IMG/VR virus record: IMGVR_UViG_3300043579_000184 | Coordinates: 35,315-99,314 of that record | Length of the DNA: 64,000 nucleotides | DNA from: a virus | Strand: one strand, 5' to 3' | In this document: positions 222-62,044 of the stretch, in pieces | How the letters are laid out: each line of letters opens with the position of its first letter | Numbering within the stretch: the stretch's first letter is position 1 | The notes under the pieces: model-generated | What the model was told of the DNA's origin: nothing | Seen by the model: only the letters and a program-made list of their open reading frames with translations | Databases searched by the model: none | Made by a program: the position numbers and the translations under genes

Positions 222-248
222 CTCCCACAGGTGGGCTCATGTGTCAAG
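222..248 (-). promoter_or_regulatory. conserved early-type promoter with CCAC-NN-GTGG dyad
   Basis: Reverse complement reads TTGACAcatgaGCCCACCTGTGGgagaat. Confidence 0.75.
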
Positions 249-417
249 AGGCGAGCGGGTCAGCCGTTACTCGACAGCAGGTCGGCCGGTCAACCGCAGG
301 ATGACCGCGCGGGCCTCGTCCTTCGTCATTCCGCCCATGATGCGCGCCCCGATGTCGTGGTACTTCAGTGTTTGCCGCGCGACCTTGAGTTGATGCCGTT
401 CCGGCACGCTCAGTTTC

Positions 418-717
418 TTAGCCAACGAACACCCCCGGTCCAATCTCCTCGCCCGGCAGGGGCACGGCGGCGAGCGCGGCGTCGATGACCTCGCGCGGCA
501 CAGCGACCACCGTGGCCCCGAGAAACTTGTTCAGGTGCATGAAGTAGGCCCCGTTCGGCTTGTGGACCGAGAGCCAGCCCGCGCCGGTGGCCGGGTCGAA
601 CTCCGCGATCCGGTGGTCGGATTGGATGATGACGCTGCTGGTGGCGGAGTTGCGCGGATACACCGTCCACTCGACGGCCTTCCGCATGGTCCCGAGTTTC
701 GCTGTCACGCTTCGCAC
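418..717 (-). CDS. hypothetical protein
   Basis: 99 aa ORF with GTG start and GGAGG SD; GC3-rich. Confidence 0.6.
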   Translation of the reverse strand: MRSVTAKLGTMRKAVEWTVYPRNSATSSVIIQSDHRIAEFDPATGAGWLSVHKPNGAYFMHLNKFLGATVVAVPREVIDAALAAVPLPGEEIGPGVFVG

Positions 718-943
718 TGCTGGCCTCCCTGCTGGAAAGTGGGGGAGCGGTGCCGGACTGACCGATTCGCGTGCCGCTCCCGAAGCCCGGGCGTTCTCCC
801 GGCTGTCCTTCTCATCTCAACCCGAGTCTCAGGTCCGGGGCGTCCTCACGCTTCCCGGCTCGGTGGCCCCCCCTTCTCGGGGCTGGTGGGGGGCGGTCCC
901 GTCTGGCGGGAGAGTCCTGTTCGCCGCTCCCTCCCGCACCTCT

Positions 944-972
944 ATAGTCCCACAGGTGGGCTTAAATGTCAA
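944..972 (-). promoter_or_regulatory. conserved early-type promoter
   Basis: Reverse complement TTGACAtttaaGCCCACCTGTGGGACTAT, 17 bp spacer. Confidence 0.75.
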
Positions 973-1319
973 GGGGCCGTGGGGGCAAACTCGACGCCGA
1001 AGATGCACGCCCAGCGCTCGCGGCCGGTGCGATGGGTGTTTTGCTTGACCCACCACGCGGGCGGCGCGTCGAGCGCGACGTGGATCCCGAGCCAGCCGCT
1101 CTCGGTGAAGTAGCCCATGACCGTCCCGGCCCCGAGCCCGTTCATCGTCACCCGGATGCGCGTGCCGCGCGGAGGCGGCGGGCCGGGGCTCGACCATAGC
1201 GCCACGTCCCCGTAGTTGGTGGTGTTGCCCTCCTCGTCGCGGATGGGCGCGGTATGCGCCGGGGCCCGCATCAGGTAGTAGGCGTTCGGCACGGTGGTCT
1301 CAGGGGTCTTGGTGTTCAT
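969..1319 (-). CDS. hypothetical protein
   Basis: Likely start MNTKTPETTV at 1319 (GGAG SD, overlaps stop of upstream gene). Confidence 0.6.
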   Translation of the reverse strand: MNTKTPETTVPNAYYLMRAPAHTAPIRDEEGNTTNYGDVALWSSPGPPPPRGTRIRVTMNGLGAGTVMGYFTESGWLGIHVALDAPPAWWVKQNTHRTGRERWACIFGVEFAPTAP

Positions 1320-1597
1320 GCGGCGGGCTCCTCGTTGATGAAGGCCGAGTTGGCGGGGATGGTGACCGCGTCGGCGGGCAGGACCGTTGTCGTCCGTGTG
1401 AAGCCGAAGCGAGTCGTCCGGTTGCGTGGGCCGGTCCGGCGGCTGACCAGCGTCCCTGTGGGCTTGGTCACCTTGCTGAACCAGCTCTCGCGGGTCGTCC
1501 CGGTGCCGGTCGTGAAGGTCACCAGCATCCGCTTCTCGGTCACGCGGGTGACGGTGCCTGTGTAGAGCGAGCCGTTGAACATCACTGTCGCTGTCAC
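1316..1597 (-). CDS. hypothetical protein
   Basis: GGAGG SD; first gene after the minus-strand promoter at 1614-1642. Confidence 0.6.
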   Translation of the reverse strand: MTATVMFNGSLYTGTVTRVTEKRMLVTFTTGTGTTRESWFSKVTKPTGTLVSRRTGPRNRTTRFGFTRTTTVLPADAVTIPANSAFINEEPAA

Positions 1598-1613
1598 TGC
1601 TTACCTCCACAGA

Positions 1614-1687
1614 CATAATACCACAGGTGGGCCCAGACGCAAAGCTACACGGGCCGATTTGACACTTGAGCCCACCTGTGGTAGTAT
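1614..1687. promoter_or_regulatory. back-to-back divergent pair of conserved promoters
   Basis: Minus: TTGCGT-ctgg-GCCCACCTGTGG-TATTAT (1642 to 1614); plus: TTGACA 1659-1664, GCCCACCTGTGG 1670-1681, TAGTAT 1682-1687. Confidence 0.8.
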
Positions 1688-1709
1688 GATAGTGGAAAGG
1701 ACGGTGCTG

Positions 1710-2012: not shown

Positions 2013-2653
2013 CCCCGAAGGTCACCATCGAGAACGAGACGCGCTGGCCCACCCGGATGCTCCTGCCCTTCGTGCGGCGGATCGCCCGTGAGGAGTTTCC
2101 CGGCACCACCGTGGCGAACACGCGCCGGGGCGTCGTGGTCCGGGTGGTCTACAACCGGGCAGGCAAGACCTTCAACTACTGCACCGGCTACGCCCACTAC
2201 AACAGCAGCCGGTGTCTGGTGCGGGTGCCCTTCCCGCACCCGGGCAAGGTCTTCCCGGTCATCGACTTTTGCCACGTGGTCGGCCACGAGTTTGGCCACT
2301 GCCGGGGCCTGAAGCACAAGGACATGGGCTGGCAACACGGCTGGAGCTGCCGCCGGGGCACCTACTCGGGCGAGCACTACGCATGGGCCAAGGCCCTGCC
2401 GGTGCCGGTCCTCCCCGTGAAGGTGACACTGACAACGGCTGACAAGCGACTTGCGAAGCTCAAGACCGCTGAGAAAGCCGTGCTGACATGGGCTCGCAAA
2501 CACAAGTTGGCAACGACCAAGCTGAAGCTCTGGACCAAGAAGGCGAGAGCCCTTGCCAAGTTGGTCGGCGGGACGCCAGCCGAGACGGCCGAGCCGCTGG
2601 CCGAAGCGGCGTGTGGAGTTGACACATTAAGCCCGCCCGTGGTATCGTCCTGA
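2009..2653 (+). CDS. putative zinc metallopeptidase (metzincin motif)
   Basis: HEFGHCRGLKH = HExxHxxGxxH; ATGA overlap with upstream gene. Confidence 0.6.
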   Translation: MTPKVTIENETRWPTRMLLPFVRRIAREEFPGTTVANTRRGVVVRVVYNRAGKTFNYCTGYAHYNSSRCLVRVPFPHPGKVFPVIDFCHVVGHEFGHCRGLKHKDMGWQHGWSCRRGTYSGEHYAWAKALPVPVLPVKVTLTTADKRLAKLKTAEKAVLTWARKHKLATTKLKLWTKKARALAKLVGGTPAETAEPLAEAACGVDTLSPPVVSS

Positions 2654-2654
2654 C

Positions 2655-4082
2655 ATGGCTGACGAACCTGAGGACGTAACTGCACTGGACCCGGTCCTAG
2701 CGGCTGAGGTTGATGCTGCACTTGCGAAGGATCCTCCTAAGTACTCGCATCCGACCAAGCCGGTCCGATTCGAGGACAAGGCGGCGGGATTCACCGGCGA
2801 GGCCACGACGCTCAAGACGTTCCGGCCGGGCACGATGGACCTGATGCAGGCGCTGCGGATCCGGATGAAGCAGCTCAAGGAGCACACCCGGTTGGAGCTG
2901 GAGGCCCAGTGGGAGGGTTTCAACGACCGGGCGATTAAGATTCTCGCCACGCGAGAGGACGAGGCCCGCGAGTTCGTCTACATGCCGCAGACCGTTGAGG
3001 ACGAGGACGAGCTGATCGAGATGCTGCAGACACAACTCGCGGATGTTGAGAATGCGCTGATCTCTGAGCAGTACTCCCACTCCTCGGCGCACGTCGTTGC
3101 GCTGGAGCAGAAGCTCCTCGCCGTCCGGGTGAACGGGGCCTTTCAGGCCGCGTACCCCGGCAGCGATGGCGCGCTCCAGCAAGCGACCGTCGATACTCTG
3201 AAGGTGGCGAAGTCGTACTGCTGGTCCCCGAACTGTGTCGAGGCTGTGGCCGCCTCGGCCGACCGGCTGGTCGATGAGGCGATGCCTGCCGAGCTGCCGC
3301 TGGGCGAGGTCACCGTACCAGCGGCCAGCGGGTGGTACTGGTTCGAGAAACCACTGCCCATCAAGACGACGACTTCAGGCGAAGCGGCGGTGGCGCTGCT
3401 CTGGCGGCGAGAGCTGCGTGACGGTCACCTCGCCGACGCGCTGCCGCACGAGCAGGCGCTCTACGGCAAGCGGACGGTGTCCTACACGTGGTTCAGCGTC
3501 TTCATTCTGGAGTCGATCACCCTTAACGGCCGCAAGATCCTCGCGCCGTCGCCGACTCTGGCGTGGACGTGGGTCGATACCGTGCCGCTCGGCAAGCTCC
3601 GGGCGAACATGGTGCAACGCTTCACCGACATCGACCGGCTACCGGCGGGCACTGGGGTCTCGGCGTTGGGGCCCGAGGCGTGTGCGGACGCGGCGCTGTG
3701 GTTCTCACGGTTCTGGATGTCGGCCGCGACGTGGCTCGACTCACGAGTGACCGCCAGCGGCAAGCCGCGCCCGTCCCTGCTGGGGCGGATGACGACGAAG
3801 CTCCCGCGCCAGCAGGGCCGCCAACTGCAGCGGCAGTTCCTGCTGAAAGAGTTCCCGACGGTCGAGGTGGTCTACCTGCGTCGGACCGAGCCGCGCGAGC
3901 CGCTCAGCAACAAGCCACAGCTCAAGGAGCACGACTACTGCTGGTACGTCGAGGCGTTCCCGAGGCGGCAGTGGTTCCCGAGCTTGGGGCGACACGAGCT
4001 GATCATGGTCACCGATCACGTCAGAGGTCCAAAAGACAAGCCGCTGAAGCACGCGCGTCGTGTGTATGCAGTGAGCCGGTAG
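2655..4082 (+). CDS. hypothetical protein (475 aa)
   Basis: Long ORF; promoter copy at 2619-2648 directly upstream; no recognisable family. Confidence 0.75.
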   Translation: MADEPEDVTALDPVLAAEVDAALAKDPPKYSHPTKPVRFEDKAAGFTGEATTLKTFRPGTMDLMQALRIRMKQLKEHTRLELEAQWEGFNDRAIKILATREDEAREFVYMPQTVEDEDELIEMLQTQLADVENALISEQYSHSSAHVVALEQKLLAVRVNGAFQAAYPGSDGALQQATVDTLKVAKSYCWSPNCVEAVAASADRLVDEAMPAELPLGEVTVPAASGWYWFEKPLPIKTTTSGEAAVALLWRRELRDGHLADALPHEQALYGKRTVSYTWFSVFILESITLNGRKILAPSPTLAWTWVDTVPLGKLRANMVQRFTDIDRLPAGTGVSALGPEACADAALWFSRFWMSAATWLDSRVTASGKPRPSLLGRMTTKLPRQQGRQLQRQFLLKEFPTVEVVYLRRTEPREPLSNKPQLKEHDYCWYVEAFPRRQWFPSLGRHELIMVTDHVRGPKDKPLKHARRVYAVSR

Positions 4083-4294
4083 GAGGGACGATGGAGACGT
4101 TTCGCGAGTGCGTAGACCAATACCTGCAGGCGGAGGGGCAACCTTCGACGGCTGCGTTGATGATGGTGGCCGAGCTGCGGCGAGCCCTGCTTGAGACGGC
4201 TGCCACCCAGCTCGATGTGGACGAGCGCGTCCGTCTGCAGAACCTTGCCGCAGTTCTGCCGCAGTGGTAAGGCCACCTGTGGTAACATAATCGT

Positions 4295-4969
4295 ATGGCA
4301 CAGCGACTGCGACCGGGGATGACCCGAGACCCCTACGACTGCTGCGGCAAGGCCGCTGAGAAGTCGTACGGCCGCCAGAAGGGCAAGATTTGCGAGGAAT
4401 GCGCCGGGCTCATCACCGACGGCAAGGTGGCCCGCGCCACGCTGGCGGAGCAGAGCCTTGCGGTCTACCAGTGGACCAGCGCGGACTACGGCTGGCCCCG
4501 GTTCTACAAGACCGACGTGCGTTTCCCGCACACGCTGCAGCACGGCAACTTGCACGACGAGCTGGCGAAAGCGTTCTGGGCGCTAGTGAACCGGGTCGCG
4601 GTGGACGCGCCCGCCGACACGCCGCGCCACGCGCCGACCTACACGATGCGGAAGCGGTGGAGCGGCGGCAAGGAGCTGGAGCGCAGCTACGACCCGTGGC
4701 CGAAAGTCCTGAGCGCGGAGGGGACCAACCGGGACTCGTGGAGCTTCGAGAAGCTGGTGCTCCTGTCTCCGGCGACTCGTGAGGCGCTCGACCTGCTGCA
4801 CCAGACCATCGGGGTGGCGCTCGCCGGGGTCTACCTGCAGGGGAAGGAGGAGGGCGGCTCGGTGCTGCACCAGCTCGCCTCCGGGACGCTGTCCCTGCAG
4901 GACTTCGATGACGCGCTGTTGACCTCGGAGCAGCGGGCCGCCGCCCAGAAGGCGCGACGTGGCTACTGA
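4295..4969 (+). CDS. hypothetical protein
   Basis: 224 aa ORF; promoter-dyad copy at 4272-4291. Confidence 0.7.
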   Translation: MAQRLRPGMTRDPYDCCGKAAEKSYGRQKGKICEECAGLITDGKVARATLAEQSLAVYQWTSADYGWPRFYKTDVRFPHTLQHGNLHDELAKAFWALVNRVAVDAPADTPRHAPTYTMRKRWSGGKELERSYDPWPKVLSAEGTNRDSWSFEKLVLLSPATREALDLLHQTIGVALAGVYLQGKEEGGSVLHQLASGTLSLQDFDDALLTSEQRAAAQKARRGY

Positions 4970-5294
4970 CGACTACGCCCGCTATCGTGGGAAGTGCCGG
5001 GAGCTGTCGGAGGCGGCGGTCGCCGCCGACCCGACGCTGACGCTGGTCCGGGGGCACTATTTCTGCCCGGTCTGGGGCGTGCAGGCGCACTGGTGGACCC
5101 GCCGCCCTGACGGCACGGTGTTCGACCCGACGGCGGCGCAGTTCCCTTCCAAGGGCACCGGCGAGTACATCGAGTTCGACGGCTTCCACGAGTGCGAGCA
5201 GTGCGGCAAGCGGGTCCGTGAGGAGGACGCCGTTATCGACCCGCCCCACCTGTTCTGTTCCAGCACCTGCTACGGCCGGTGCGTACTGGGTTGA
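4959..5294 (+). CDS. small Cys/His-rich phage protein, possible papain/transglutaminase-like fold
   Basis: GKC...AHWW...VFDPTA pattern (C-H-D) plus CEQC...CSSTC. Confidence 0.4.
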   Translation: MATDDYARYRGKCRELSEAAVAADPTLTLVRGHYFCPVWGVQAHWWTRRPDGTVFDPTAAQFPSKGTGEYIEFDGFHECEQCGKRVREEDAVIDPPHLFCSSTCYGRCVLG

Positions 5295-5336
5295 CTTCTG
5301 GGCCCACCTGTGGCATCATGATGGTGGAGGGAAGCG

Positions 5337-5960: not shown

Positions 5961-7818
5961 GCCTGACCGGCGACCGTAACCTCTCGCGTTGCCCACGCTG
6001 CGGCGCGGTGTTCGAGAACCACAACGAGCGGTTCACGGCGTGCCCGAAGCACCGAACACCAAAGTTGGACGGGTCCGGCAGGGTGATGTGCAGCCTCCCG
6101 GGCTGCCCGTTCCGGTCGGTCCCCGGGAAGCCGAAAGGCGGTCTCTGCCCGTACCATTGGGCCGCCGACCGATGGGGGAAGGCATGGGCCGACAACTGTT
6201 ACCCGAACTACACCGAGGAGTCGGCGCTCGCGTATAACAGGGCCGAGGTGCCCCATGGCCCGACCGATCCGCCTGTATAAACACGTGTTCGTCCGGGGCT
6301 CGCTGCTCAAGGACCATCCCGAGAAGCTGGAGTTCGTCCGCTCGGGCAACACGCCCTGCCGGGCGAAGGCAGCGGCGTTTGTCGCGCTGGAGACCCACCT
6401 GAAGCAGGCGCACGACGCGCGCACCGGCTGGTGGCTGGCCGCGCAGGTTGACGTGACCCATCTGGCTGTGGTAAGGTAAGGCCAATGGAGGTCTTAATGT
6501 CCGACTCTGCCGACGAGTACTCCGTACTCGACTGGTTAGCCGTCAGCGAGTGGCTCGATGCGCTGCGGTCCAAGGGCGGGATCTCCCGGGAGGGGCTCAT
6601 GGATGTCCAGCTAGGTGAGGACGACCTCGTCGCCGTGATCGGCGCGCGAGTCAGTAACGTCGGCGAGGAGCTATGGAATAACCCGAGGTGCGTGTTCCTG
6701 CAGGGAGACGTGGTGGTCTCGCGAGGGCTCCCGGTCAACACGCGAGCCGTGGTCTTCACACGGTTCCTCGGCCACACGGCATTCAAGGTCATCATGGACC
6801 AAGTCCGCCGACGCAAGCTGGCGGTGTACCCCATGCAGGGGACGGGCCAGCTCAAGCGAACACTTGCCACCTTACTTGCCCCCGTGCCTGTCCCCGTGCT
6901 GCCGATGACTGACCACAGCGCCGGTCGTGTGCTTCCCGAGTTCTCGCCACCCGAGACCCGAGAACCCGAGACCCTTCCAGTACCCGAACCCCAGACCTGC
7001 ACCTGCGATGCGGTGGAGCCGCCCGGCGGGTGGCAAGGCGCGGTGCCGCTGCCGTGTCCCGTTCACGAGATCCGAGAACCCGAGGACGACATGGCGAAGA
7101 CGGTGCAGCGTGGGGACGTGACCGCATGGGTACGCGACCAGTACACCCCGGGGATGAAGTTTGCCGACATCATCCGGCTGGCGACTCGCGAGAAGGTGCC
7201 GTTCAAGTCCAGCTCGATCTCGGCGGCGTTCTACACGATCAAGCGAGAGGTCGGTGTGGCTGCGAAGCCTGCGAAGCCCGCGCCGCCGCCCGCCGAGACT
7301 CTCGACCAGCGCGCCGTTGCTATCGCGCGAGACATCGTGGCGGTGCAGGCGGTCCCGGTCCCACCCCCGGCCCCGCCGGTGCCCGCGCCGAACGGCGACG
7401 AGCTGGTGCGGCTGGTGGATGAGGTGATGGCCGGGCTGGCGCTGGTCCGTGAGGCCGCCGTCCGCATGGCCGCCGACCGCGAGAAGATGGCGAAGATTCT
7501 GGAGCTGGCCCAGCAGCTTGGAGTGAGCTAATGCAACGCGCCGCGACCCGCTTGCCGCCCCCGGACGACCCGCAGATCCGCACGCTCGACGTGCACGTCA
7601 AGGGCGACCGGGGCCACCTGATCGGCCGGGCCTCGGTCCCGGCGGAGCTGCTGCTCGACTTCGAGGCCGCATGGCAGGCGTTTCACGCCAAGCACCCGCA
7701 CTACACGCTGGAGCAGTTCCTGCGCTACGTGCTCATCAAGGGGACCATCATCGCGGTCCGCCGGGTGGTGTTCAACACGATCCCGGAGCCGACGCTCTTC
7801 TTCAAGGGGACGGATTGA
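5957..7818 (+). CDS. cluster of hypothetical genes (5957-6280 Cys-rich, 6255-6479, 6485-7531, 7531-7818)
   Basis: Closely packed or overlapping ORFs with phage-like codon usage. Confidence 0.55.
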
Positions 7819-7914
7819 CATCCGGCGGGGACACCCGCATACTCAGGGTTTTTCCGAGGGGTTAATGCCGGATTCCGGGCTCATCTGTCACCGGGCTCAC
7901 GCGGGAGGTCTGTA

Positions 7915-8469
7915 ATGGAGTTTGAACACCTGCGGCCGGTGATTATCGCGGCCCTCCTGCGGTTCGGCAAAGGCCGGGTGCGGACCGATGACCTTGAGGA
8001 CTTGGAGCAGGAAGTCCTGCTCCGCCTCGTCCGGGCCACCCAATCCCCCACGGCGGCCTACAACCCGGCGCGCGGCGCGCTGACCACCTACGTGTATCTC
8101 GTCACCCGCAGCGTGTTGTACAACGCCTTCGCGAAGAACAGCCGCGACCCGAGCAACCACGCGCTCCGGCTGGAGGTCACCGCGACCGGGGCCCCGCTGG
8201 CCATCGCGGCCGAGAACATCTGCTCCCTGCGGGATGACCGCATCGAGACCCGGCTGGCCGCCGCCGATGTGCTGGCCAAGCTCCGGGCGGTCGCCGACGC
8301 GACCAGCGACAACGCGCGCCTGCTGGCGCGCTACGTCGAAACGTGCGAACAGCTCACGGGCGAGGCGACGGAGTACCGGGTGGCCCGGGCGATGGGCGTG
8401 CCGGTGCGACTGGTCCAGCAGGTCCGCCAGCAAGCCCGCGCCCTGCTGGCTACGCTCGGGGCCGCGTGA
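7915..8469 (+). CDS. phage RNA polymerase sigma-70-family factor (ECF/group IV size)
   Basis: Region-2-like DDLEDLEQEVLLRL...YNPARGALTTYVY and region-4 HTH-like EYRVARAMGVPVRLVQQV; GGAGG SD. Confidence 0.75.
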   Translation: MEFEHLRPVIIAALLRFGKGRVRTDDLEDLEQEVLLRLVRATQSPTAAYNPARGALTTYVYLVTRSVLYNAFAKNSRDPSNHALRLEVTATGAPLAIAAENICSLRDDRIETRLAAADVLAKLRAVADATSDNARLLARYVETCEQLTGEATEYRVARAMGVPVRLVQQVRQQARALLATLGAA

Positions 8470-8672
8470 CGTGGCCGCCGGGGCCCGCCCGCATCCCGAA
8501 CGCCAGCGGAAGGGACCGCTGAAGCAGATCAAGCGGTTGATCCGCCGCGCCATCGGCGGCGGCTACAATCAGGCGCTCGTGGAGCTGGAATGCGGGCACA
8601 TCGTCAAGACCAACTCGAAGCGCCGGGCCCGGTGCGACCGGTGTGACCCTGACCCCAAGCTGACCGACGACG

Positions 8673-9377: not shown

Positions 9378-9380
9378 CCG

Positions 9381-14077: not shown

Positions 14078-14778
14078 GCGACTTCGACTTCCTTATCAAA
14101 GCGTCGGTGACCTCCGCGATTGCGCGGCCGCGCACCTTCCTGAACATCGTGCTCGACAAGTCCAGCTCGATGGGGAAGGTGCGGGAGGCGACCATCGACG
14201 CCTACAACGCCTTCCTCGACGGCCAGCGGACGGACCGGGTCGATGAGCTGTTCGTCACCCTGACGCAGTTCAGCGACCGCGAGCAGATCGAAGTGTCCTA
14301 CCGGGTGAAGCCCATCGCGGAGGTGCGCCCGCTCACGCAGGCGACCTACATCCCGGACGGCATGACGGCGCTCTACGACGGGGTGGTCCGGACCCTCGCC
14401 GCGATGGACCGCGAAGTCGGCCCGCAGGCGCGGGTGCTCACGGTGGTGCTGACCGACGGCAACGACAACAGCAGCCGCGAGGTCGAGCACGCCGGTGAGC
14501 TGGCGGCGATCATCCGCGAGTACGAGCGGCGGGGGAACTGGACCTTCGTCCTGTTGGCAGCGGATCTCAATGCGTACAAGGCCGGGGCGTCGATGGGGTT
14601 CCGGCCGGGCAACGTGCAGTCCTACGCGGCCGCGCATGTCGGCGAGGCGCTGGCGACCGTGGCGCGCGGGGTGACGGCCTACCGGCACGGCGACCAGATG
14701 CAGACCGGGGAGTTCTTCACCGCGCGCAAGTTCCGGCGGACCCAGTGGGTGCAGGACGAAGTCCCCTCGACCGGCTGA
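14074..14778 (+). CDS. von Willebrand factor A domain protein
   Basis: MIDAS IVLDKSSSM, GMTALYDG, VVLTDGNDNSSRE. Confidence 0.85.
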   Translation: MSDFDFLIKASVTSAIARPRTFLNIVLDKSSSMGKVREATIDAYNAFLDGQRTDRVDELFVTLTQFSDREQIEVSYRVKPIAEVRPLTQATYIPDGMTALYDGVVRTLAAMDREVGPQARVLTVVLTDGNDNSSREVEHAGELAAIIREYERRGNWTFVLLAADLNAYKAGASMGFRPGNVQSYAAAHVGEALATVARGVTAYRHGDQMQTGEFFTARKFRRTQWVQDEVPSTG

Positions 14779-23193: not shown

Positions 23194-23386
23194 GCGAGTG
23201 GCTGGTGGACGAGTGGCGGCTGCTCGATTGGGTGCTGATCGCGGCGTGCTGCTGGTTTTCCTACCGGCTCTACCGGCTGGAAAGAAAATAGTTGACAGTA
23301 ATACCGACCCGTGGCATTATGAGGTTGTCGATGGCGCTGGCCTGCACTCAAGCAAGCAGCGACTAGGCGACAGGAGCCTCACCCTC

Positions 23387-25924: not shown

Positions 25925-26082
25925 GGGATGTCCGGTTCCTCGTGGCCGTCCTGATCTGCCTCGCCACCCTGATGTGGGGCTACGTAGGCTGTCTGGTCGC
26001 GCACACCCATCCGCCGCCCCCTATAAACCGCTTCCCTTGACATCTAAGCCCACCTGCGGTATCATACTGCTGGAGGGTAGAG

Positions 26083-28871: not shown

Positions 28872-29333
28872 GTGCCTTTCCAATGGGCGGTGCTGCAGCT
28901 TCGCGAGCCCGGCGAAGCCCTGCCGGTGGCCGACCTCGAACGCGACTTACTGGCCCGCTCGCCTCAGACCGTCATGCGGTTTCCGGCGATTCGCGCGGGC
29001 CTGCTGGACCGTGACAACCCGCTCAGCGCGTACGTCTTCGTGAAGCATCCGACGGCCAGCCTATCGCTGGAGGCCAGCCAGTATGCGGCGCGCTACCTGC
29101 GTGTGCCGGGCACGTCCCGCCTGCAGGTGGTGACCGAGGCCGAGCTGAAGCAGATGGCCGTGCCGCCTGCGCTGCCGCCGACCGGGACACTGGTCCGGGT
29201 GATTGCCGGAGACTGGTCCGACATGGAAGGCATCGTCGTCGCCCAGAACTGCACCAAGGTCGCCGTGCTGCTGGAGCTGTGGAGCAAGCGCGCGGTCATC
29301 GAACTGCCCCCCTCCGAACTTCGAGTGGTATGA
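28872..29333 (+). CDS. NusG/RfaH-like transcription elongation factor (NGN + KOW)
   Basis: WAVL...AYVFV NGN-like part; GTLVRVIAGDWSDMEGIV KOW motif; upstream TTGCGT-N18-TATAAC. Confidence 0.7.
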   Translation: MPFQWAVLQLREPGEALPVADLERDLLARSPQTVMRFPAIRAGLLDRDNPLSAYVFVKHPTASLSLEASQYAARYLRVPGTSRLQVVTEAELKQMAVPPALPPTGTLVRVIAGDWSDMEGIVVAQNCTKVAVLLELWSKRAVIELPPSELRVV

Positions 29334-30013
29334 GCACACACTTCCTGCTGAGCTTGAGCGACGTGAATCTCGACCGGAGCCAGTTCCGCGAGATGGAGAC
29401 GCTGCACCGGGAGCCGGACTGGCGCTTCGCGGCGAAGTTTCTCGACCGGGTCCGTCTCTTACTGGACCGGGTGCCCCCGGTCGAGCGCGACGTGGTCGAG
29501 CTGTACTACTGGGGCAACAAGAAGCAGGACGTGATCGGGCGGATGCTGGGCCTGTCCCAGCAGGCAGTCAGCCATCGGCTGCACTCGGCCTACCGGCGGA
29601 TCATCTTCATGCTCCAGCAGCAGGAGGTCGCCCCGGCCCAGATGCACGCCGACCTGACGCTGCTCATCCCGAACCCCTTCACCGTCCGGGTGCTCTGTGA
29701 CTTCGCCACCACCAGTAGCCAGACCGTGACCGCCCAGCGACTGGGCGTGCCGCAGCAGCGGATCTGCTGGCACCTGAACGCGGGCCTCAAGGTGCTACGG
29801 GAGTCGCAGGAGCTGGACGCCGTCTTCTACGTGACCTACTTCGAGGATCTGCGGCGGCACCGGAACATCCTGCGCGAGGTGCTGGCCGGGCGGCGGAAGA
29901 AACAGGTGACCGATGGAGAGACCGACCGCTACGCCCACTACGCCCGAGGACCGGCCCGAAGTTATTGTGGCGGCGGAGGCGGAGCTGGAGCGGGTCAAGA
30001 TTGCGATTCTTGA
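29330..30013 (+). CDS. sigma-70 region-4-like HTH transcription regulator
   Basis: LDRVPPVERDVVELYY...QDVIGRMLGLSQQAVSHRL and a second HTH SQTVTAQRLGVPQQRI. Confidence 0.65.
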   Translation: MSTHFLLSLSDVNLDRSQFREMETLHREPDWRFAAKFLDRVRLLLDRVPPVERDVVELYYWGNKKQDVIGRMLGLSQQAVSHRLHSAYRRIIFMLQQQEVAPAQMHADLTLLIPNPFTVRVLCDFATTSSQTVTAQRLGVPQQRICWHLNAGLKVLRESQELDAVFYVTYFEDLRRHRNILREVLAGRRKKQVTDGETDRYAHYARGPARSYCGGGGGAGAGQDCDS

Positions 30014-35986: not shown

Positions 35987-36694
35987 ATGCCCTGCTTCCT
36001 CGTGCCGCTGTACGAGTACAACCACTGTCACAACCCGGACGGGGCGGGTGGGGGCCAGTTCTGTTCGACGGTGACGCGCGTGGGGATTACCAGTGCCCGG
36101 CCAGCGGGGGCTCCAGACGCCCGTACGTCCCGGACGGTGTACCGAGACATGCACGCCGTGGCAGACCAGCTACGCGCGCTGCCGGGGGTCCGACGGGTCT
36201 CCGCCACGCCCGGTGTCGGCGCGTGGCAGGGGGGCCGGGAGTCGTCATGGATCGTGGCCTATCAGGGGAATGGGGAGGCGCGGCGGCTCTTGGCACGGGT
36301 CGGAGCCCAGTTCAATCAGGACGCGGTGCTGCTGATGCACGGGTGCCGGGGATCGACGTGTGACCCGGCGGTGGAGTTTCATTTCGACAAGCCGGTGAAC
36401 AGCCCCCTGATGGACGACATCGGCCAGCTACTGGGGTCCGAAGGGCTTGGCGGCTGGACGTGGGGGAAGCGGGCGGGGAAAACGGTGCTGCGGATGGTCA
36501 GTGTTCCGGCGTGGGGCGGGCGGCGCGACCTGCATCTCTCAGTGACCGCACGGCTCTCGACCATTCTGGCGGGGGTCGGGTTGACCCATCGGCGGCGGGT
36601 CAAGTCCGTTCGGACCGAAGTCATCGAGCGAGGCGATTACGCGCATGAATTGGGGACCAAATCTAAGCCCACCCGTGGTAGCATAGTAGCATGA
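35987..36694 (+). CDS. leader-family protein 6, unknown cargo
   Basis: MPCFLVPLYEYNHCHNPDGAGGGQFC. Confidence 0.75.
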   Translation: MPCFLVPLYEYNHCHNPDGAGGGQFCSTVTRVGITSARPAGAPDARTSRTVYRDMHAVADQLRALPGVRRVSATPGVGAWQGGRESSWIVAYQGNGEARRLLARVGAQFNQDAVLLMHGCRGSTCDPAVEFHFDKPVNSPLMDDIGQLLGSEGLGGWTWGKRAGKTVLRMVSVPAWGGRRDLHLSVTARLSTILAGVGLTHRRRVKSVRTEVIERGDYAHELGTKSKPTRGSIVA

Positions 36695-37116
36695 AACGCG
36701 AACATTTACAGCAGACGTATCAACGGGACGAGGCCGCGCAGCAGCGGGCCCTCGCGGCACTCCGCACGCGACTAGCGTCGGGACAGACGGGTCATCCCGA
36801 CCCCTTGGCCGACGCGCCGGAGGGGCCGGACCTGCCCGAGGCGGAGGACGAGGTTGTCGCAGAGATTCGGCCGAAATAACGAGCCCACCTGTGGTATCAT
36901 AATAGCGGAGGTGAGCTGATGGCTGCTGATATTCGCGTGTCGGGTGGGGGGTCGGTCTACCTGTTTACTCCGCTGTCAGAGGCCGGACGCTCGGCGCTGA
37001 CCGAGACGGTGGCGTCTGAGCCGTGGCAATGGTTGGGCGGGTCACTGGCGGTCGAGCACCGGTTCGCCGGAGACCTTGCGGAGGCCCTGCGGGCTGACGG
37101 GCTCGTGGTGGTCTGA
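36691..37116 (+). CDS. two small genes (36691-36879, 36919-37116), each preceded by a promoter-dyad copy
   Basis: GCCCACCCGTGG-TAGCAT at 36667 and GCCCACCTGTGG-TATCAT at 36883. Confidence 0.55.
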
Positions 37117-52351: not shown

Positions 52352-52825
52352 CTACCAGCGAATGCGGGCCTTTACGCCCACCACACCGGGGGCGAGCTGC
52401 GGGCTGATCTTCACCTTCTGCAGGCCGATGAACATGAGGAGCGCCCCGGCTCCCATCGCCGCATAGGTATAGGGCCGGACTTCCGGCATGGCGGCGAGGT
52501 CACCGCATTCCCCGCGCGTGATGTCGAGCGAGCTGCCGTACTGGAGGTCGTTGTCGATGCAGTAGGCCCGGCCGTTGTAAAGGTAGTTGTCGCCGTCCTG
52601 CTGGGCGAACGAGTCGGCCCAGATGAGCGCGCCACCGCCCAACAGCAAGATACCGGTGAGGGCAAGGATCGGGCTCCGGCGCTTGTGTGTCGGCGGCGGC
52701 TCGTCCAGCATCTGCCGGGCGAGTGCGCCGGTTTCCTCAGCGGTCTGGCCATAGGTGACGGTCTGGGCGAACACCGGCAGCGGAGACAGGGTCAACAGGA
52801 GTAGAATCGCAGTCAGTTTCTTCAT
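52352..52825 (-). CDS. secreted/membrane protein
   Basis: Signal peptide MKKLTAILLLLTLSPLPVFA plus two hydrophobic segments; promoter-dyad copy at 52831-52848. Confidence 0.6.
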   Translation of the reverse strand: MKKLTAILLLLTLSPLPVFAQTVTYGQTAEETGALARQMLDEPPPTHKRRSPILALTGILLLGGGALIWADSFAQQDGDNYLYNGRAYCIDNDLQYGSSLDITRGECGDLAAMPEVRPYTYAAMGAGALLMFIGLQKVKISPQLAPGVVGVKARIRW

Positions 52826-52866
52826 GGACCTATGATACCACAGGTCGCCTCAACCAAGGAGCCACG

Positions 52867-54057: not shown

Positions 54058-54088
54058 TTCGGAAGGGTAGGGCGTGTGTGGGTGGCCG

Positions 54089-54597: not shown

Positions 54598-54599
54598 GG

Positions 54600-54899: not shown

Positions 54900-54943
54900 C
54901 CGGCTTACCTCCACCACCATGATGCCACAGGTGGGCCCAGAAG

Positions 54944-55423
54944 TCAAGATTTTGTGAACCTGCCGTGCAGGCGCGGCTGGTTCCGGTGCGCCCCGATATA
55001 CCGGCCCTGCGCCTTCCGTTTCGCAGTGTGCAGGCGCATGTGGGGACCGCGCTCCATCGGCTCAAGGTTGTCTGGGGAGTCGTCATCACGCACGTCGTTT
55101 TTGTGGTGAGCAATCTCGTCGGGTTGCAGGAGCCGCCCGAGCGTGGCTTCGAGCACGAGGTCGGCCCGCTTGGTGTAGCCCTGCTTGTTTGCTCGATGGT
55201 GGCCCGGCTGCAGCACGTAGACGTAGCCCTGCGAGCGCATCGTCCCGCCGGTCCAGAACCTGCTGTTCGGGCCGCGCATCCATTCCCACGACTCGGCGGC
55301 GCGCGTGCGCGCGATCAGCCGGTTCCGACAGGGGGCCGGGAGATTACAGGTTGTGCGCTCCAGCGGGCTACGGAAGCGGTCGCGAGTGACGACCGCGCCG
55401 CAGACACAGCAGGTTCGGGTCAC
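54944..55423 (-). CDS. HNH homing endonuclease
   Basis: GYVYV..PGH, LGRLLQPDEIAHHKNDVRDDDSPDNL; N-terminal CCVC. Confidence 0.75.
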   Translation of the reverse strand: MTRTCCVCGAVVTRDRFRSPLERTTCNLPAPCRNRLIARTRAAESWEWMRGPNSRFWTGGTMRSQGYVYVLQPGHHRANKQGYTKRADLVLEATLGRLLQPDEIAHHKNDVRDDDSPDNLEPMERGPHMRLHTAKRKAQGRYIGAHRNQPRLHGRFTKS

Positions 55424-55935: not shown

Positions 55936-56008
55936 CCTTTCCTCCACCATCATGATGCCACAGGTGGGCCCATGCTGTCAAGCCCGGTGTGTGATTTACC
56001 GGTAGCGC

Positions 56009-58879: not shown

Positions 58880-60934
58880 ACGGTGAAGCCGCCCGCGCGG
58901 GTCCAGACGGTCACGTCCCACGCGCTGACCCATGGCTCGTAGTTGTCGTGCGTGTAGAGGTCATCGAAGGTGTCCGCCCCGTCGAAGCCGCCCGCGACGT
59001 AGATTTTGTCCACCTCGGGGTGCGTGGCCAGCACCGTGGTCACCAGCTCACGAATCTCGGCGACCCGGCCGTTCCAATACAGCGCCTCGGCCTCCGGGCG
59101 GGGCCCGCATTGGCCGGTCGGACCGGCGGTGCAGAGCCACGTGCCGCGCGAGCGGATCCATGGGTTGCTGGCTTTGGCCTCAGTGCGGGCCTCGCCGCGC
59201 GCCTCCTTCACCTTCGCCAATAGGGCTGCTGCGGTCACCATCATGCTGTTCCTTTCAGGACCGCGAGGACCGCTGCGGCCATCGGCGGCTCCAGATTCCG
59301 TAGGTTGATGTCCACCTTGCAGTCGAAGATCCTGACCGACGAGACCCCTATCGGCAGGCGGGTGTCCGGGCCGTCTTCGGGCTCCGGCCCGCCGAGCAGC
59401 TCGTGCTCAATGGTCGAGTCGTAGGCCGCTCGGGCCCGGTCGAGGCGATTGGTCTCCCGCGCCGCGACGACCTTGCCGTACTCGGTCACCAGCCGGGCGC
59501 GCAGGGTGGCGGCGTTGATGTCGCCGTCAGCCGTGACCCGGTAGCGTCCCGCGTGCCGCGACCGGCGGCCGTAGCCTATCGACGGTGAGAACGTCACCGT
59601 GCCGAAGATGTTGGCGGGGTTCGGGGTGACCACGGTGTAGATGCTGGCGAAGTCGAAGCTCCCGACGACCAGCCCGTCCTTGGCGACTTCGAGTGCCCGG
59701 CCGTCCCACTTCTCGCGCGTCAGGAACCCGGCTTTATGGACGGCCGCTATCACCTTCGCCTTGACCGCTGCCATCGCTTCGTTTCGTGTCATCACTTGGC
59801 CTCCAGTGCCGTCTTCGCCGTCTCCGCCGTCCATTCGGTCACGTCCGTCACGACGCCCACCGCCGTGCCGAAGTGCCCGACGCCCCAGTTGCCGCCCGCC
59901 GCCTTGTGGTCGAGCCACAGCTTCCAGCGCTCGGCGTTCAGCCGGTAGAGCAGACCGTAGTCCGTGACGTAGCGCACGCCGCGCTTGGGCTTCACTGCTT
60001 CGCTGGCCGGGACCATCCGCTTCCGTCGAACCGTTGCCATCGCTTCCTCCACCGCTATTGTGCCACAGGTGGGCTTAACTGTCAAGGCTTCGCCCATCCC
60101 CGTGCGACCCAATCGGCGTACATGGCGGCGGCCTCGGCCTCCTTGGCGGTCAGCGGGACCAGCCCGGCCATCTTCAGCAGCCCCCGGACCCCGATGGACC
60201 CGGCGACCCGGTCGCTTGCGACGACCTTCCCGGAGCCGTCCTTGACAAAGCCGTAGTAGGTCCAGCCGTAGTTCGCGCCGCGCGGTTTGTACGGGATGCG
60301 GACCCGCTTGTCTTTCTCGACCCCGACGTGGAACAGGCGGCCGTCGGCCATGACGACGCGGGCGTACTTGTTCCCGAAGGGCGTCACGCGCCACGGCCCG
60401 TCCTTGGTGTCGGGGCCGCTCGGGCGGGGCGGGTCGATGGTGTAGAGCGTCATGCGCTGGCCGCTTCCTCGGCCTCTTCGGCGGCCCGCTCGGCGGCCTC
60501 CTCGGCCTCCTCGCGCCGCAGGTGCTCCTCGTGGCAGTCCTCGCAGCGGAATTTCTCGCCCGGCGCGCTGTCGGCCTCCGCCGTGCAGAGCCACTCCGGC
60601 CAGCCGTCCCGGTTGTCGATGATGGCGGCGCTGCAGGCCATCCGAATCTTGCAGTCCGCGCAGGCGTGAAAGTGTCGGCGGCGTCTCATGCCTTCCTCCC
60701 GGCCCGCAGGGTCACGGCGTGCTCGGTGAAGGTGCCGCTCGCCTTGACCACCCGCTTGTGCCGGACCGTCCAGCGCAGCTCGTGGAACGTGGCCAGCTCG
60801 GTGACCCGGTCGAAGTCCGCGTCGTTGGTGACCCCGAGGTAGACCGGCCGATGGGGCTTCGCGTTGACCCACGCGGGGCTGACCCCGTAGGCGGCCATGT
60901 CGGCGAAGAACCCGGTGAACCCTGTTGCTGCCAT
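58876..60934 (-). CDS. cluster of small early-type genes (58876-59244, 59241-59792, 59792-60040, 60082-60453, 60450-60689, 60686-60934)
   Basis: Coupled ORFs; promoter copies at 60055-60085 and 60951-60980. Confidence 0.55.
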
Positions 60935-61006
60935 CCCATACCTCCACTGCCATAATACCGCAGGTGGGCTTAGGTGTCAAGCCTATTATGTCCACCGGTG
61001 GGCTCA

Positions 61007-61245
61007 AGCAGGGAACAAACCGGGTCCGCTATCCGTCTAACAGATCAGGAGGGGGGAACGGGGAACCGAAGGGGTCGCCCCCCGAGAGGGAAACCGGGCC
61101 GCGTGTGACGGACTGAACGAAACCTCCTGACGCGGGGTGGGAACGGAAGGCGGGTCGCCCCTGCTGACCGGGTCCGAAGTCGCCGGGACGCCGGAGAGAC
61201 CAAAGACCGAAGGAAGCCTCGAAGACCGCGCCGAAAGGCGCGGTC
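61007..61245 (+). ncRNA. candidate structured RNA, purine/GGA-rich
   Basis: Helices 61007-13/61159-65, 61045-52/61123-30, crossing 61032-37/61107-12; GACCGCGCC-GAAA-GGCGCGGTC and CCC-GAGA-GGG GNRA hairpins; no plausible CDS. Confidence 0.45.
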
Positions 61246-61258
61246 GGTGTGTACGGGG

Positions 61259-61937
61259 CTAGTTCTGTTCGGCTTGCCGGATGATCCGGGCCTGCTTGAC
61301 GAACTGCCGGGCCATGGCCAAGACCTCGGTCTGCTCGGGCGACAGCTCCTCCATGTCATCCGGCCGGGCGATCCGCAGGCCGAGCCCGGGGGTGAACACC
61401 AAGATGGTGCCGCAGCCGATGCACAGGGTCACGTCGCCGGGCTTGGGCGTGGCGGGGCCACCGATCAGCGCATCCACCCGGTCCAGCAGCTTCTGGCACC
61501 GGGGACAGGCCGCCGAGGGCGTCTTGGTGCCCTTGAAGGACCGGAACGGCGTCACCGGCGGTCCCCGTGCTTCCCGCTATCGTAGAGGTGTTCCTTCATC
61601 CACGCCTCGGACATCCGATCCGACGGTTCCACCCAGCGTCTCCGGGCCAGTGACTGGCCCCACCACGCGAACACGACTGCCACGAGGAGCCCGGTCAACA
61701 CGACCGCCATGGTTAGCCCTCCCAGTTGACCTCGGCCTCAGCGGCTGCCTCGTAGGCACCCGGCAGGATGGCGATGGGCGCGAGCCCGCGCTTGATGCGT
61801 TCCGGGTTGGCCTTGTCCACGCAGGCTTTGCAGATGGGCTCCCGGCTCCCTCTGACCCGGACCGAGGGTACCAGATTCGGGTGGAAGCTGAACGGCTCCC
61901 TGCACCCGATACACGTTCCTAAGACACTCACAAACAT
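61259..61937 (-). CDS. small Cys-motif genes (61259-61555, 61713-61937)
   Basis: CPRC...CIGC and CIGC...CKAC; promoter-dyad copy 61968-61986. Confidence 0.5.
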
Positions 61938-62044
61938 CGCGTTACCTCACCTTTCTTCCTCCACCTGTATAATACCACAGGTGGGGGCAACTAGCGAGGG
62001 AAACTCACTCTGTTTGTGCCCCGGTCAGGTAGGGGGGCGCTCTC

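Follow-up and report, generated by a model that had tools for sequence, protein, structure and literature searches.

Phages T4 and T5 carry many strong early promoters of the host type per genome, with extra conserved positions that include the TG of an extended -10 element; this extra conservation lies chiefly in AT-rich upstream (UP-like) sequence and in TG, and we know of no fixed GC-rich 10-mer in the spacers of these promoters. In phage lambda, a Q-binding element lies in the PR' spacer, with one such site per genome. The elements closest to those described here are the promoter cassettes of T4-like phages known as PeSLs (promoter-early stem-loops), found in the T4-type phages RB49/phi1, PST and nt-1 (Arbiol et al. 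2010, PMC2839356; Comeau et al. 2014, PMC4122927), and the stoperators of mycobacteriophage L5. Stoperators and operators occur in the cluster A mycobacteriophages; the site of L5 gp71 is 5'-GGTGGMTGTCAAG (PMC3029335).

Copies and anatomy of the promoter cassettes

The source phage (G000) is an uncultivated soil phage with a complete genome of 129,940 bp (~130 kb) in an IMG/VR record, of which bases 35315–99314 form the 64-kb stretch analysed here (the window). An earlier note had listed about 21 copies of a sigma70 promoter in the window. Each of these proved to be a genuine copy (18 strong, 2 degenerate at 2631 and 23303 on the plus strand, and 1 partial tandem at 60992 on the minus strand), and a genome-wide scan yielded 27 strong copies and about 5 weak or partial ones, with about 2 copies predicted by chance. 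In the window, CCACNNGTGG had 14 matches (2.4 expected; maximum of 7 in 100 shuffles), including a coding site at 57763 that is unrelated to the promoter family, and the 18-mer GCCCACCYGYGGTANNAT had 22 matches with up to 3 mismatches (1.9 expected; shuffle maximum 6). A -35 box is recognisable in 14 of the 20 full window copies, close to the 15 or so given previously. As the note had also stated for almost all of its copies, the strong copies, here without exception, are intergenic and point into small hypothetical genes, their orientation matching that of the downstream gene in 27/27 cases; no Pfam family was assigned to 19 of the 20 genes immediately downstream, and the remaining one encodes a DUF2958 protein. 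Sequence and comparative evidence support a single genome-wide class of sigma70-type promoters located before small genes, including islands in the structural region. Since some copies are nearly identical over about 46 nt (genome position 20275 and window positions 5302 and 54919; ~96%, first codons included), the uniformity of the family stems in part from duplication or gene conversion.

As read from the DNA, each copy is a compact expression cassette consisting of TTGACA, a 17-bp spacer, TATNAT and one of two outputs. The -35 and -10 boxes are consensus-like and spaced by 17±1 bp, A-11 and T-7 are invariant (26/26 copies), and near-random columns (-29/-28, within the -10 box, and -5 to -3) are interleaved with invariant ones. 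The copies are predicted host-type sigma70 promoters; TTGACA-17-TATNAT with invariant A-11/T-7 and a TG extension marks recognition by a primary sigma factor. TTGACA often includes the TGA with which the upstream gene ends. In the SD class, TGGAGG (the ribosome-binding site) lies exactly 5 nt downstream of the -10 box. In the leaderless class, ATG lies exactly 6 nt past the -10 box in 5 of the 8 SD-less copies (a placement with a chance of ~3e-9 by our own estimate), and a sixth, weak copy has GTG. The ORFs opened by these ATGs are 56–475 aa long with a GC3 of 0.74–0.92, and the leaderless layout recurs in a relative of the L066 lineage (see below). The sites in the window are as follows.

208..247 (core 219-236), minus strand: strong promoter cassette, SD class
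933..972 (core 944-961), minus strand: strong promoter cassette, no start codon nearby downstream
1604..1643 (core 1615), minus strand: strong promoter cassette, SD class, weak -35 box, divergent from the 1670 copy
1659..1698 (core 1670-1687), plus strand: strong promoter cassette, SD class
2619..2657 (core 2631), plus strand: degenerate copy (block GCCCGCC, -10 TATCGT), leaderless, ATG at 6 nt, 475-aa ORF
4260..4297 (core 4271), plus strand: strong promoter cassette, leaderless, no -35 box, 224-aa ORF
5291..5330 (core 5302), plus strand: strong promoter cassette, SD class, at the head of the ECF-like sigma operon
7815..7843, plus strand: sigma70-type promoter without the block, before the sigma gene, conserved in the L066 lineage (a natural control)
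23292..23320 (core 23303), plus strand: sigma70-type promoter, degenerate block TACCGACC, CGTGG-CATTAT intact; its orthologue in the L066 lineage is a block-poor promoter
26037..26076 (core 26048), plus strand: strong promoter cassette, SD class, heading the RfaH-like and sigma-r4/Cro-like operon
36656..36693 (core 36667), plus strand: strong promoter cassette, leaderless, no -35 box, 62-aa ORF
36872..36911 (core 36883), plus strand: strong promoter cassette, SD class, no -35 box
38520..38559 (core 38531), plus strand: promoter cassette, SD class, -10 box flanked by the arms CCACCTGC/GCAGGTGG of a perfect 8-bp inverted repeat
39172..39211 (core 39183), plus strand: strong promoter cassette, SD class, TGA stop of the upstream gene within TTGACA
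43377..43405 (core 43388), plus strand: promoter copy without SD, leader of ~110 nt, then TerL-C, portal and capsid genes
52823..52860 (core 52832), minus strand: strong promoter cassette, leaderless, variant block GGCGACC, 157-aa ORF
54908..54947 (core 54919), minus strand: strong promoter cassette, SD class, before the DUF2958 gene
55941..55981 (core 55952), minus strand: strong promoter cassette, SD class, 18-bp spacer
60046..60085 (core 60057), minus strand: strong promoter cassette, SD class
60941..60980 (core 60952), minus strand: strong promoter cassette, SD class
60985..61006 (at 60992), minus strand: partial tandem copy (block and CCACCGGTGG, -10-like box 1 nt off)
61958..61997 (core 61969), minus strand: promoter cassette, no -35 box, -10 box flanked by the arms CCACCTGT/ACAGGTGG of a perfect 8-bp inverted repeat

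A conserved block in the spacer

The segment truly in want of an explanation is the 10-base TRRGCCCACC at -27 to -18, the register of which is fixed to the -10 box; 23 of 25 CCCACCNGYGG sites directly adjoin such a box. The block is conserved as TGAGCCCACCYGTGG in two diverged relatives, L065 (85% aa identity in the portal) and the L066 lineage (67%), in which the flanks are unrelated. In the L066 lineage its distance from the -35 box is 1 nt longer, with the distance to the -10 box unchanged. Since invariant columns alternate with near-random ones and the block persists in relatives with unrelated flanks, it is, on this comparative evidence, under selection and not merely recent, which bears out the earlier claim of a constrained spacer. 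Two block-less sigma70-type promoters, one before the sigma gene and one before the phrog_1362 gene, are conserved between the source phage and the L066 lineage, suggesting that the block is dispensable for polymerase recognition. The block was not found as a general bacterial promoter feature in a scan of 185,579 species genomes, which gave 8 single hits; the 5 hit genomes checked have 1–2 block copies apiece. Most likely, the block is a binding site for a trans-acting factor.

The best explanation, with a probability of about 0.55, is that cassettes read by host sigma70 carry a lineage-specific block bound by one trans-acting protein that would control the whole class. Each cassette would be a self-contained unit for the host primary (sigma70-type) RNA polymerase, with TTGACA at -35, a 17-bp spacer with TGYGG (-17 to -13) in the role of an extended -10 element, TATNAT (-12 to -7) and a transcription start about 7 nt downstream of the -10 box. 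In about 20 copies the start would be at or adjoin GGAGG, so that the mRNA opens with the ribosome-binding site and the start codon follows 5–9 nt on; in 5 copies it would be the A of ATG, giving a leaderless mRNA. This anatomy and start position, like the trade-offs between elements and the conservation in relatives, can be read from the sequence itself. The cassettes head clusters of small hypothetical genes, and most likely constitute an early class, since two of them head operons carrying the phage's own transcription proteins. The block, lying between both sigma contact points, would be bound by a single protein, probably phage-encoded, and in the simplest version this protein would act as a repressor to bring early transcription to an end; what we infer is when the class is expressed, that there is such a factor and what it is, and which way it acts. 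Neither an integrase nor a repressor was found in the genome, and since it has no integrase, lytic early shut-off fits better than a lysogeny repressor.

It is possible, though not likely, that the cassettes are PeSL-like, the -10 box being flanked by an inverted repeat, (C)CACCTG(Y) ... (R)CAGGTG(G), of which the block forms the 5' arm. Read-through transcripts would then fold, partly mask the SD or the start codon and attenuate or insulate the downstream gene, transcripts from the cassette's own promoter would lack the 5' arm, and the repeats might double as recombination points. The block is complementary to the GGTGG preceding the SD, making a stem-loop role possible: i) a fold that pairs CCACC with GGUGG and leaves the -10 box in the loop is obtained for about 18 of 27 copies (mean z -1.2), ii) two copies (38531 and 61969) have perfect 8-bp arms differing by a compensating pair, iii) variant blocks match variant downstream words (CCAGC/GCTGG twice, GACCT/AGGTC once), and iv) pairing is better between the two arms of one copy than between arms drawn from different copies (permutation p = 0.005). 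The PeSLs of T4-like phages share the layout of stop codon, -35, -10, stem-loop, SD and ATG before ORFans (PMC2839356). However, most stems have 4–5 bp, with loops of 8–14 nt and no U tract, the energies range from -4 to -18 kcal/mol, stems of at least 7 bp are no commoner than in permuted controls, and the TRRGC portion of the block is unpaired; GGTGG also overlaps the SD, so its conservation may be translational only. The junctions of both indels relative to a close, 96%-identical variant fall outside the cassettes, in other repeats, leaving the previously suggested role as recombination points without direct support.

Rather less probable is that there is no trans-acting factor and that the 45-nt cassette is an optimised strong promoter and ribosome-binding unit spread by duplication or gene conversion, its block being retained for spacer shape or for contacts favoured by the host polymerase. 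The three near-identical copies mentioned above are in line with this, as are the ability of sigma70 itself, through R451, to sense the spacer sequence near -18 (PMC3130263) and the relative G007, in which this architecture recurs with another, related word in the spacer (TTSAGGCSTC). However, conservation is position-specific, with near-random columns among the invariant ones, the block is kept where flanks are unrelated, the same genome has conserved block-less promoters, and the block does not recur in the promoters of any scanned bacterial genome.

The dyad and the candidate regulators

The earlier note had described a fixed CCAC-NN-GTGG dyad abutting the -10 box and read by a dimeric factor. 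The dyad is perfect in only 13 of the 21 window copies, and its right arm reads GCGG in 8/27 genome copies; in these, C at -15 has no compensating change in CCAC, the partner A being invariant, which argues against the dyad as a recognised unit. The right arm, TGYGG, appears better explained as an extended -10 element, since TG trades off against the quality of the -35 box (Fisher one-sided p = 0.034): T at -15 (TG) is kept in 8/8 copies lacking a -35 box, the copies with C at -15 (CG) all have a perfect TTGACA and a TAT[CT]AT -10 box (8/8), and TG is present in every copy with C at -12. Promoter elements that compensate one another are the expectation for sigma70 promoters. It is thus improbable that a symmetric dimer adjoining the -10 box uses the palindrome as its operator: perfect copies are well over chance, but the arms have just 4 bp, the right one covaries with the quality of -35 and -12, which is how an extended -10 element would behave, conservation continues for another 5 nt on the left but not on the right, and the L066-lineage copy 26367 has CTGTGG but GTTTACC replacing GCCCACC. 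With the dyad, the dimeric nature of the factor also loses its support, TRRGCCCACC having no mirror image.

As possible readers, the note had named an HTH protein at about 29330 and a sigma factor at 7915. Both are genuine, but no tie of either to the block was found. The genes concerned are as follows.

7915..8469, plus strand: ECF-like sigma factor of the phage (184 aa), a candidate for directing the following stage of transcription and not for the block motif
28872..29333, plus strand: 153-aa protein with a weak RfaH/UpxY (NusG-like) profile match, candidate transcription factor
29279..30013, plus strand: protein of 244 aa, HTH of sigma region 4 plus a weak Cro-like HTH, speculative candidate block reader

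No other DNA-binding Pfam family except a zinc ribbon was found in 69 further window proteins and 30 other scanned proteins. The sigma-r4/Cro-like protein is also present in G006, a more distant relative without the block, which has about 10 repeated cassettes of its own (ECF-type, GGAAC-N17-CGTC, with a separate upstream palindrome). Four genes that come first behind motif promoters in the source phage have G006 homologues that come first behind the ECF-type cassette, which argues that the regulon is real, and the G006 sigma homologue (31% identity in region 2) lies directly downstream of one such cassette. There is very little likelihood that the block belongs to a phage-specific, middle/late promoter read by polymerase with the 184-aa or the 244-aa phage protein: both are encoded by the phage, and the G006 sigma sits behind a cassette of the kind that precedes orthologues of the motif-driven genes, but the boxes and TG bear the primary-sigma signature whereas the G006 cassettes are classic ECF type, the sigma gene has its own block-less promoter, which argues against autoregulation, and motif promoters stand ahead of both regulator genes, and must therefore first be fired by something else.

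Comparison with known systems

The present family has in common with the T4 and T5 early promoters the extra conserved positions beyond the hexamers, including TG. As for the lambda Q element, the phage has a weak RfaH/NusG-like gene and one motif promoter with a long leader before late genes, but there are about 27 sites as against one in lambda, and neither a Q homologue nor an evident pause element was found in this phage.

Like the stoperators, the block is an asymmetric short site that is intergenic and in one orientation relative to transcription, in numbers comparable to their 24–34 copies per genome, and would have one phage protein as its reader. The reverse complement of the L5 site, CTTGACAKCCACC, reads TTGACA followed by CCACC, and the element here is CTTGACA-N5-GCCCACC; with its 5-nt gap, this resemblance may be coincidence. 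The L5 sites, however, lie mostly outside promoters and block elongation in the prophage, whereas 23/25 sites here form part of a promoter, with constant spacing to the -10 box, in a genome with no integrase or repressor found.

The likeness to PeSLs is broader. Both are repeated intergenic cassettes, by the dozens in PeSL phages, that combine a stop codon, near-consensus sigma70 boxes, an inverted repeat lying between the two or spanning the -10 box, an SD and a start codon; both stand mainly before small ORFan genes, including islands inside conserved modules; and in both cases a relative has a second promoter class on the same plan (the Mot-box PmSLs of nt-1 and the ECF-type cassettes of G006). 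In contrast to PeSLs, whose stems vary in sequence and position (five subclasses), the present cassettes have a fixed 10-nt sequence in a fixed register, weak stems with no evident terminator function, no AT-rich tract upstream of the -35 box, indel junctions outside the cassettes in both cases seen and a leaderless output class, and they occur in an unrelated phage of 67% GC with a lambda-type portal (PF05136) and a major capsid protein of family PF25209 (Phage_capsid_4).

A probable promoter cassette repeated across the phage genome

The phage genome (IMG/VR record of 129,940 bp, 67% GC, rated 100% complete) contains 27 strong, 3 weak and 2 partial copies of a cassette consisting of TTGACA, a 17-bp spacer with a conserved 10-mer (the block, TRRGCCCACC), TGYGG, TATNAT, and either a Shine-Dalgarno sequence (SD) or a leaderless ATG. 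Beside the -10 box, the block-bearing word reads TGAGCCCACC. The first and last ORFs of the record match neighbouring stretches of a single region in a relative, so it would seem to be complete and circularly permuted. In the window (bases 35315-99314 of the record; coordinates prefixed w), the palindrome CCACNNGTGG occurs 14 times versus 2.4 expected, and the 18-mer core with up to 3 mismatches 22 times versus 1.9 expected. The 21 sites listed in the earlier note were all real: 18 strong, 2 degenerate (w2631, w23303) and 1 a partial tandem copy (w60992). By k-mer enrichment, the motif is the sole strongly enriched intergenic word in the genome, and a second one, e.g. a late promoter, was not found. 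All strong copies are intergenic and have the same direction as the next gene; they do point into hypothetical genes, as previously claimed, with 19 of 20 first downstream genes lacking a Pfam family.

Consensus of the cassette from a gapless alignment of 26 copies
-35 box: C-TTGACA at -35 to -30
Spacer start: N-N at -29 and -28
Block: T-R-R-G-C-C-C-A-C-C at -27 to -18
Extended -10: T-G-Y-G-G at -17 to -13
-10 box: T-A-T-N-A-T at -12 to -7
3' of the -10 box: R-N-N-N-N, then T-G-G-A-G-G

Invariant columns are interspersed with near-random ones at -29/-28, -5 to -3 and positions three and four of the -10 box. In 19 of 27 copies the -35 box agrees with TTGACA at 5 or more of its 6 positions, all 26 aligned copies have A-11 and T-7, and the upstream gene's TGA stop codon falls within TTGACA in at least 9. 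The sigma70-type promoter class proposed earlier is thus borne out, with TTGACA and TANNNT 17±1 bp apart, A-11 and T-7 conserved and a TG extension present. The copies are very probably host-type promoters and likely form one co-regulated class.

In about 20 copies, TGGAGG lies exactly 5 nt past the -10 box and a start codon 5–9 nt further; transcription starting at the usual distance would begin at T(-1)G(+1), so that the mRNA would begin with the SD. Five SD-less copies (genome 12208, w2631, w4271, w36667 and w52832) have an ATG exactly 6 nt past the -10 box, and the ORF that each opens is high in GC3. GTG takes this place in a sixth, weak copy, and a copy beside the portal region of the lineage represented by the relative L066 also has the leaderless layout. 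We estimate the chance of an ATG at the exact offset in 5 of 8 SD-less copies at about 3e-9. A putative start about 7 nt past the -10 box agrees, indirectly, with these ATGs (5 copies and 1 in the relative) and with the fixed -10-to-SD register, the ATG offset being the best evidence available from sequence that transcription would start where a sigma70 promoter predicts.

The motif promoters at w5302 and w26048 head operons with, respectively, the gene for an ECF-like sigma factor (w7915-8469) and a pair of adjoining genes:

w28872-29333 (+): weak RfaH/UpxY (NusG-like KOW) matches
w29279-30013 (+): sigma region 4 helix-turn-helix (HTH) plus a weak Cro-like HTH (sigma-r4/Cro-like)

These regulator genes fit an early promoter class producing regulators of later stages. 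The gene pair is kept in the L066 lineage and in the more distant relative G006, and may be a phage transcription module. No sequence relative of the sigma-r4/Cro-like protein was found among solved structures.

Three regions with cassette or cassette-like sequences are of note:

genome 26420 (window -8894, outside the window): intergenic gap with a block copy, GCCCACCAGCGG, followed by GTTATT and another, degenerate block, AAGCCCGCCTGTGA; resembles a decayed or tandem cassette
w43377-43620 (+): motif promoter (w43388) without SD and an approximately 110-nt leader, before the portal and capsid genes; a terminator-like hairpin with TTTCTCT (w43584-43606) lies just within the predicted TerL-C ORF
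w23060-24478 (+): 472-aa ORF whose homologues align only from about residue 100; a promoter-like element (w23292-23320) sits inside this long version, and the ORF probably starts at about w23387, giving 363 aa

The leader after w43388 folds no better than shuffled sequence (z = -0.04); the arrangement is reminiscent of lambda PR'/tR' late control.

The spacer block

The block is at least as well conserved as the -35 box and is kept in copies without one. It is never found by itself: of 25 CCCACCNGYGG sites, 23 directly adjoin a -10 box. It is also kept in relatives with unrelated flanks. L065 (portal 85% identical in amino acids) has 2–3 copies, and the L066 lineage (portal 67%) has 4 in the 50 of 95.5 kb covered, in the form TTGAGCCC[AG]CCYGTGG-NANNAT. 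In the latter, the -35 box is 1 nt further off and the block-to--10 distance is unchanged, so the block is anchored to the -10 box. The block was absent from the parts available of relatives with portal identity of 62% or less, and from the 14.6-kb structural region of L105 (portal 70%). Another relative, G007, has the same architecture with a related spacer word, TTSAGGCSTC; its repeated words GAACGACTGCCAC and CAGTTCTGCTC, considered as regulatory candidates, are coding (the N-D-C-H "leader" of cargo proteins).

Two sigma70-type promoters common to this genome and the L066 lineage lack the block:

w7815: in front of the sigma gene
w23292: in front of the phrog_1362 gene

Polymerase recognition thus appears not to require the block. 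Among 185,579 bacterial and archaeal species, scanned with one genome each, there were 8 single block matches; the genomes behind 5 of these have 1–2 sites each, and in none of the five is the block a general promoter feature. A literature search with the block sequence returned only unrelated primer sequences. Taken together, the anchoring, the survival across lineages, the block-less promoters and the genome scan favour a regulatory add-on that is specific to the lineage and would be read by a trans-acting factor, and we give the block as a putative protein-binding site a probability of roughly 0.55. A fixed 10-mer in about 25 promoters of one genome would mark a single control point for most of the small genes of this large phage. 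If it is read by a factor, about 27 transcription units would be switched by one protein, and the cassette would be a compact, portable part with promoter, operator and ribosome-binding site in 45 bp, in SD and leaderless versions.

Alternatively, the block could be one arm of a stem-loop. It is complementary to GGTGG or AGGTG 3' of the -10 box, same-copy arms pair better than arms from different copies (permutation p = 0.005), and each of three kinds of variant block has a matching variant partner. Two copies have perfect 8-bp arms, about 18 of 27 fold as RNA with the -10 box in the loop (mean z -1.2), and the layout is that of the PeSL cassettes of T4-like phages (PMC2839356, PMC4122927). 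However, most stems are short (4–5 bp) with no U tract, GGTGG overlaps the SD, the T-R-R-G-C portion of the block has no partner, and two indels relative to a 96%-identical variant have their junctions in other repeats. We therefore rank the stem-loop second and consider it unlikely. Somewhat less probable still is intrinsic promoter optimisation combined with concerted evolution; some cassettes are near-identical over 46 nt, so duplication adds to their uniformity but leaves the column-specific pattern and the cross-lineage conservation unexplained.

The earlier note had read CCAC-NN-GTGG as the operator of a symmetric dimer, which overlaps with the protein-site reading. The arms are only 4 bp, and position -15 is T in 19 and C in 8 of the 27 copies, always with the partner A of CCAC unchanged; the palindrome therefore shows no compensation. 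TG is found at -15/-14 in 19 of 27 copies. Position -15 varies with the promoter elements: it is T in 8 of 8 copies lacking a -35 box, a C there goes with a perfect TTGACA and a TAT[CT]AT -10 box in all 8 cases, and C at -12 is always accompanied by TG (Fisher one-sided p = 0.034 for the trade-off). TG would thus be able to replace the -35 box, in line with the known trade-off between this box and the extended -10 element. A CYGTGG plus -10 box module is also present without the block at w6448 and at 26367 of R066, an L066-lineage record. The covariation and the block-free modules suggest that the right arm is an extended -10 element and the palindrome a by-product of two adjoining modules. 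In operators of the lambda/434 type the half-sites are conserved together, whereas here the conserved block lies on one side only, and we regard a symmetric operator as improbable. Hardly probable at all is that a promoter for the phage sigma explains the block.

Promoter classes in a relative, gene content and host

G006 (IMGVR_UViG_3300015371_000004, loci L088-L093), a 116-kb relative with a portal about 49% identical, is without the motif and carries about 10 copies of another cassette (e.g. at 14497-14602, 51854-52120, 69545, 73993, 77314 and 79262 of G006): a TTACA-N4-TGTAA palindrome, GGAACYTTTT, N, ACGTCTAAATA, NGTGGAGG and ATG, with GTGGAGG between ACGTCTAAATA and the ATG. By its sequence, this would be a promoter of the classic ECF-sigma type, with a separate palindrome upstream. 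Positive autoregulation is a hallmark of ECF sigmas, and one such cassette directly precedes the sigma gene of G006 itself (L091:9031-9528:-), whose product is homologous to the sigma factor of our phage (31% identity in region 2, E = 7e-7). Four genes standing first behind the motif in our phage have G006 homologues standing first behind the ECF-type cassette, suggesting that the same gene set is under different promoter classes in the two phages. This apparent swap supports both the promoter function and the regulon idea, and the pair offers a clear natural example of phage regulon rewiring.

A bolder and rather doubtful reading goes further: the block may be no repressor site but the docking site of a phage factor which joins or re-programmes the host polymerase at every cassette, like lambda Q, RfaH or a sigma appropriator, and the phage group may swap control of its whole small-early-gene set between host sigma70 plus block (here) and an autoregulated phage ECF sigma plus upstream palindrome (G006). 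If so, the control logic of a whole regulon would be swapped at the cassette level.

Our phage has a single ECF-type site:

w61012-61040 (+): GGAAC-N18-CGTCTAA, then AGGAGG and G-rich sequence without an evident ORF

The site, with the motif promoters at w60952 and w60992 diverging from it, may be a target of the phage's own sigma, since its -10 word is common with the G006 cassettes.

The genome encodes portal, protease and capsid proteins, a RecA/UvsX-like recombinase and Mre11/Rad50-like proteins, besides the ECF-like sigma, the sigma-r4/Cro-like protein and the weakly RfaH/NusG-like protein. No integrase (PF00589, PF00239) was found in the genome, and neither tRNAs nor Rfam family matches in the window. 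Two other genes, one in this phage and one in a relative, are worth noting:

w53275-54057 (+): 260-aa protein with a C-terminal PEP-CTERM sorting signal (VPEP, hydrophobic helix, RRRN; TIGR02595 match above cut-off)
L067 2458-4978 (-), in a relative's 193.5-kb ENA contig: feoA and feoB, for ferrous iron transport, on the strand opposite to the portal gene and some kb upstream of it; they may be auxiliary metabolic genes or a prophage edge

A phage-encoded exosortase substrate is unusual. PEP-CTERM signals imply a diderm host with exosortase, and the tail of the w53275-54057 product points to such a host, overturning a guess at an actinobacterial one. A Chloroflexota lead (4 of the 8 genomes matching the motif) was dropped since these have only 1–2 copies per genome. 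The feoB gene of the relative's contig and the sigma gave nothing usable on host taxonomy, and the phrog_1362 protein, matching distant phages of many hosts, is uninformative.

Near-identical DNA was found in soil, sediment and freshwater-sediment metagenomes of many studies; no isolated relative came up when phage records were searched for near-identity to the first 20 kb, or in a protein search with the capsid. Short exact pieces occur in four wastewater "RNA-Seq cDNA" runs, as contigs from which starts, strand and RNA nature are unreadable. In practice, the motif can help to annotate transcription units and gene starts of this uncultivated group from soil, sediment and wastewater metagenomes.

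Comparison with known phage elements

The stoperators of cluster A phages are, like the present motif, numerous, asymmetric, intergenic and in one orientation. However, they are mostly promoter-independent and act on elongation, whereas 23 of 25 block sites here adjoin a -10 box; they also have a cognate immunity repressor in a temperate phage, whereas our phage has no integrase, and the only repressor-like HTH detected in the proteins of the window is that of the sigma-r4/Cro-like one.

In the PeSLs of T4-like phages, the stem-loop serves to attenuate read-through transcription, and genes are shuffled through the repeats (PMC2839356, PMC4122927). A strong sigma70-like promoter combined with SD and start codon, and repeated before ORFans, is found here too. 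As to a stable stem-loop terminator or attenuator, the stems here are mostly 4–5 bp (8 bp in two copies), with no U tract, a mean z of -1.2 and better pairing between same-copy arms (permutation p = 0.005). The upstream flanks differ from those of PeSLs, being GC-rich coding ends with almost no information in the columns upstream of -35. Nor do the junctions of the two indels available for comparison fall in the elements. The 96%-identical variant L069 (IMGVR_UViG_3300011441_000037) lacks two segments:

w36067-37154: deletion joining two copies of a repeated N-terminal "leader" coding sequence, with loss of two motif promoters
w39229-39387: deletion joining a 10-nt GTGAGCGAGA repeat at two gene starts, with loss of a 60-aa Cys-rich gene

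Both events have junctions in other repeats and give no direct support to the suggestion that the motif copies serve as recombination points. The two promoter classes of our phage and G006 parallel the PeSL/PmSL pair of phage nt-1 (PMC4122927), and the motif is a new variation on a known type of phage regulatory cassette.
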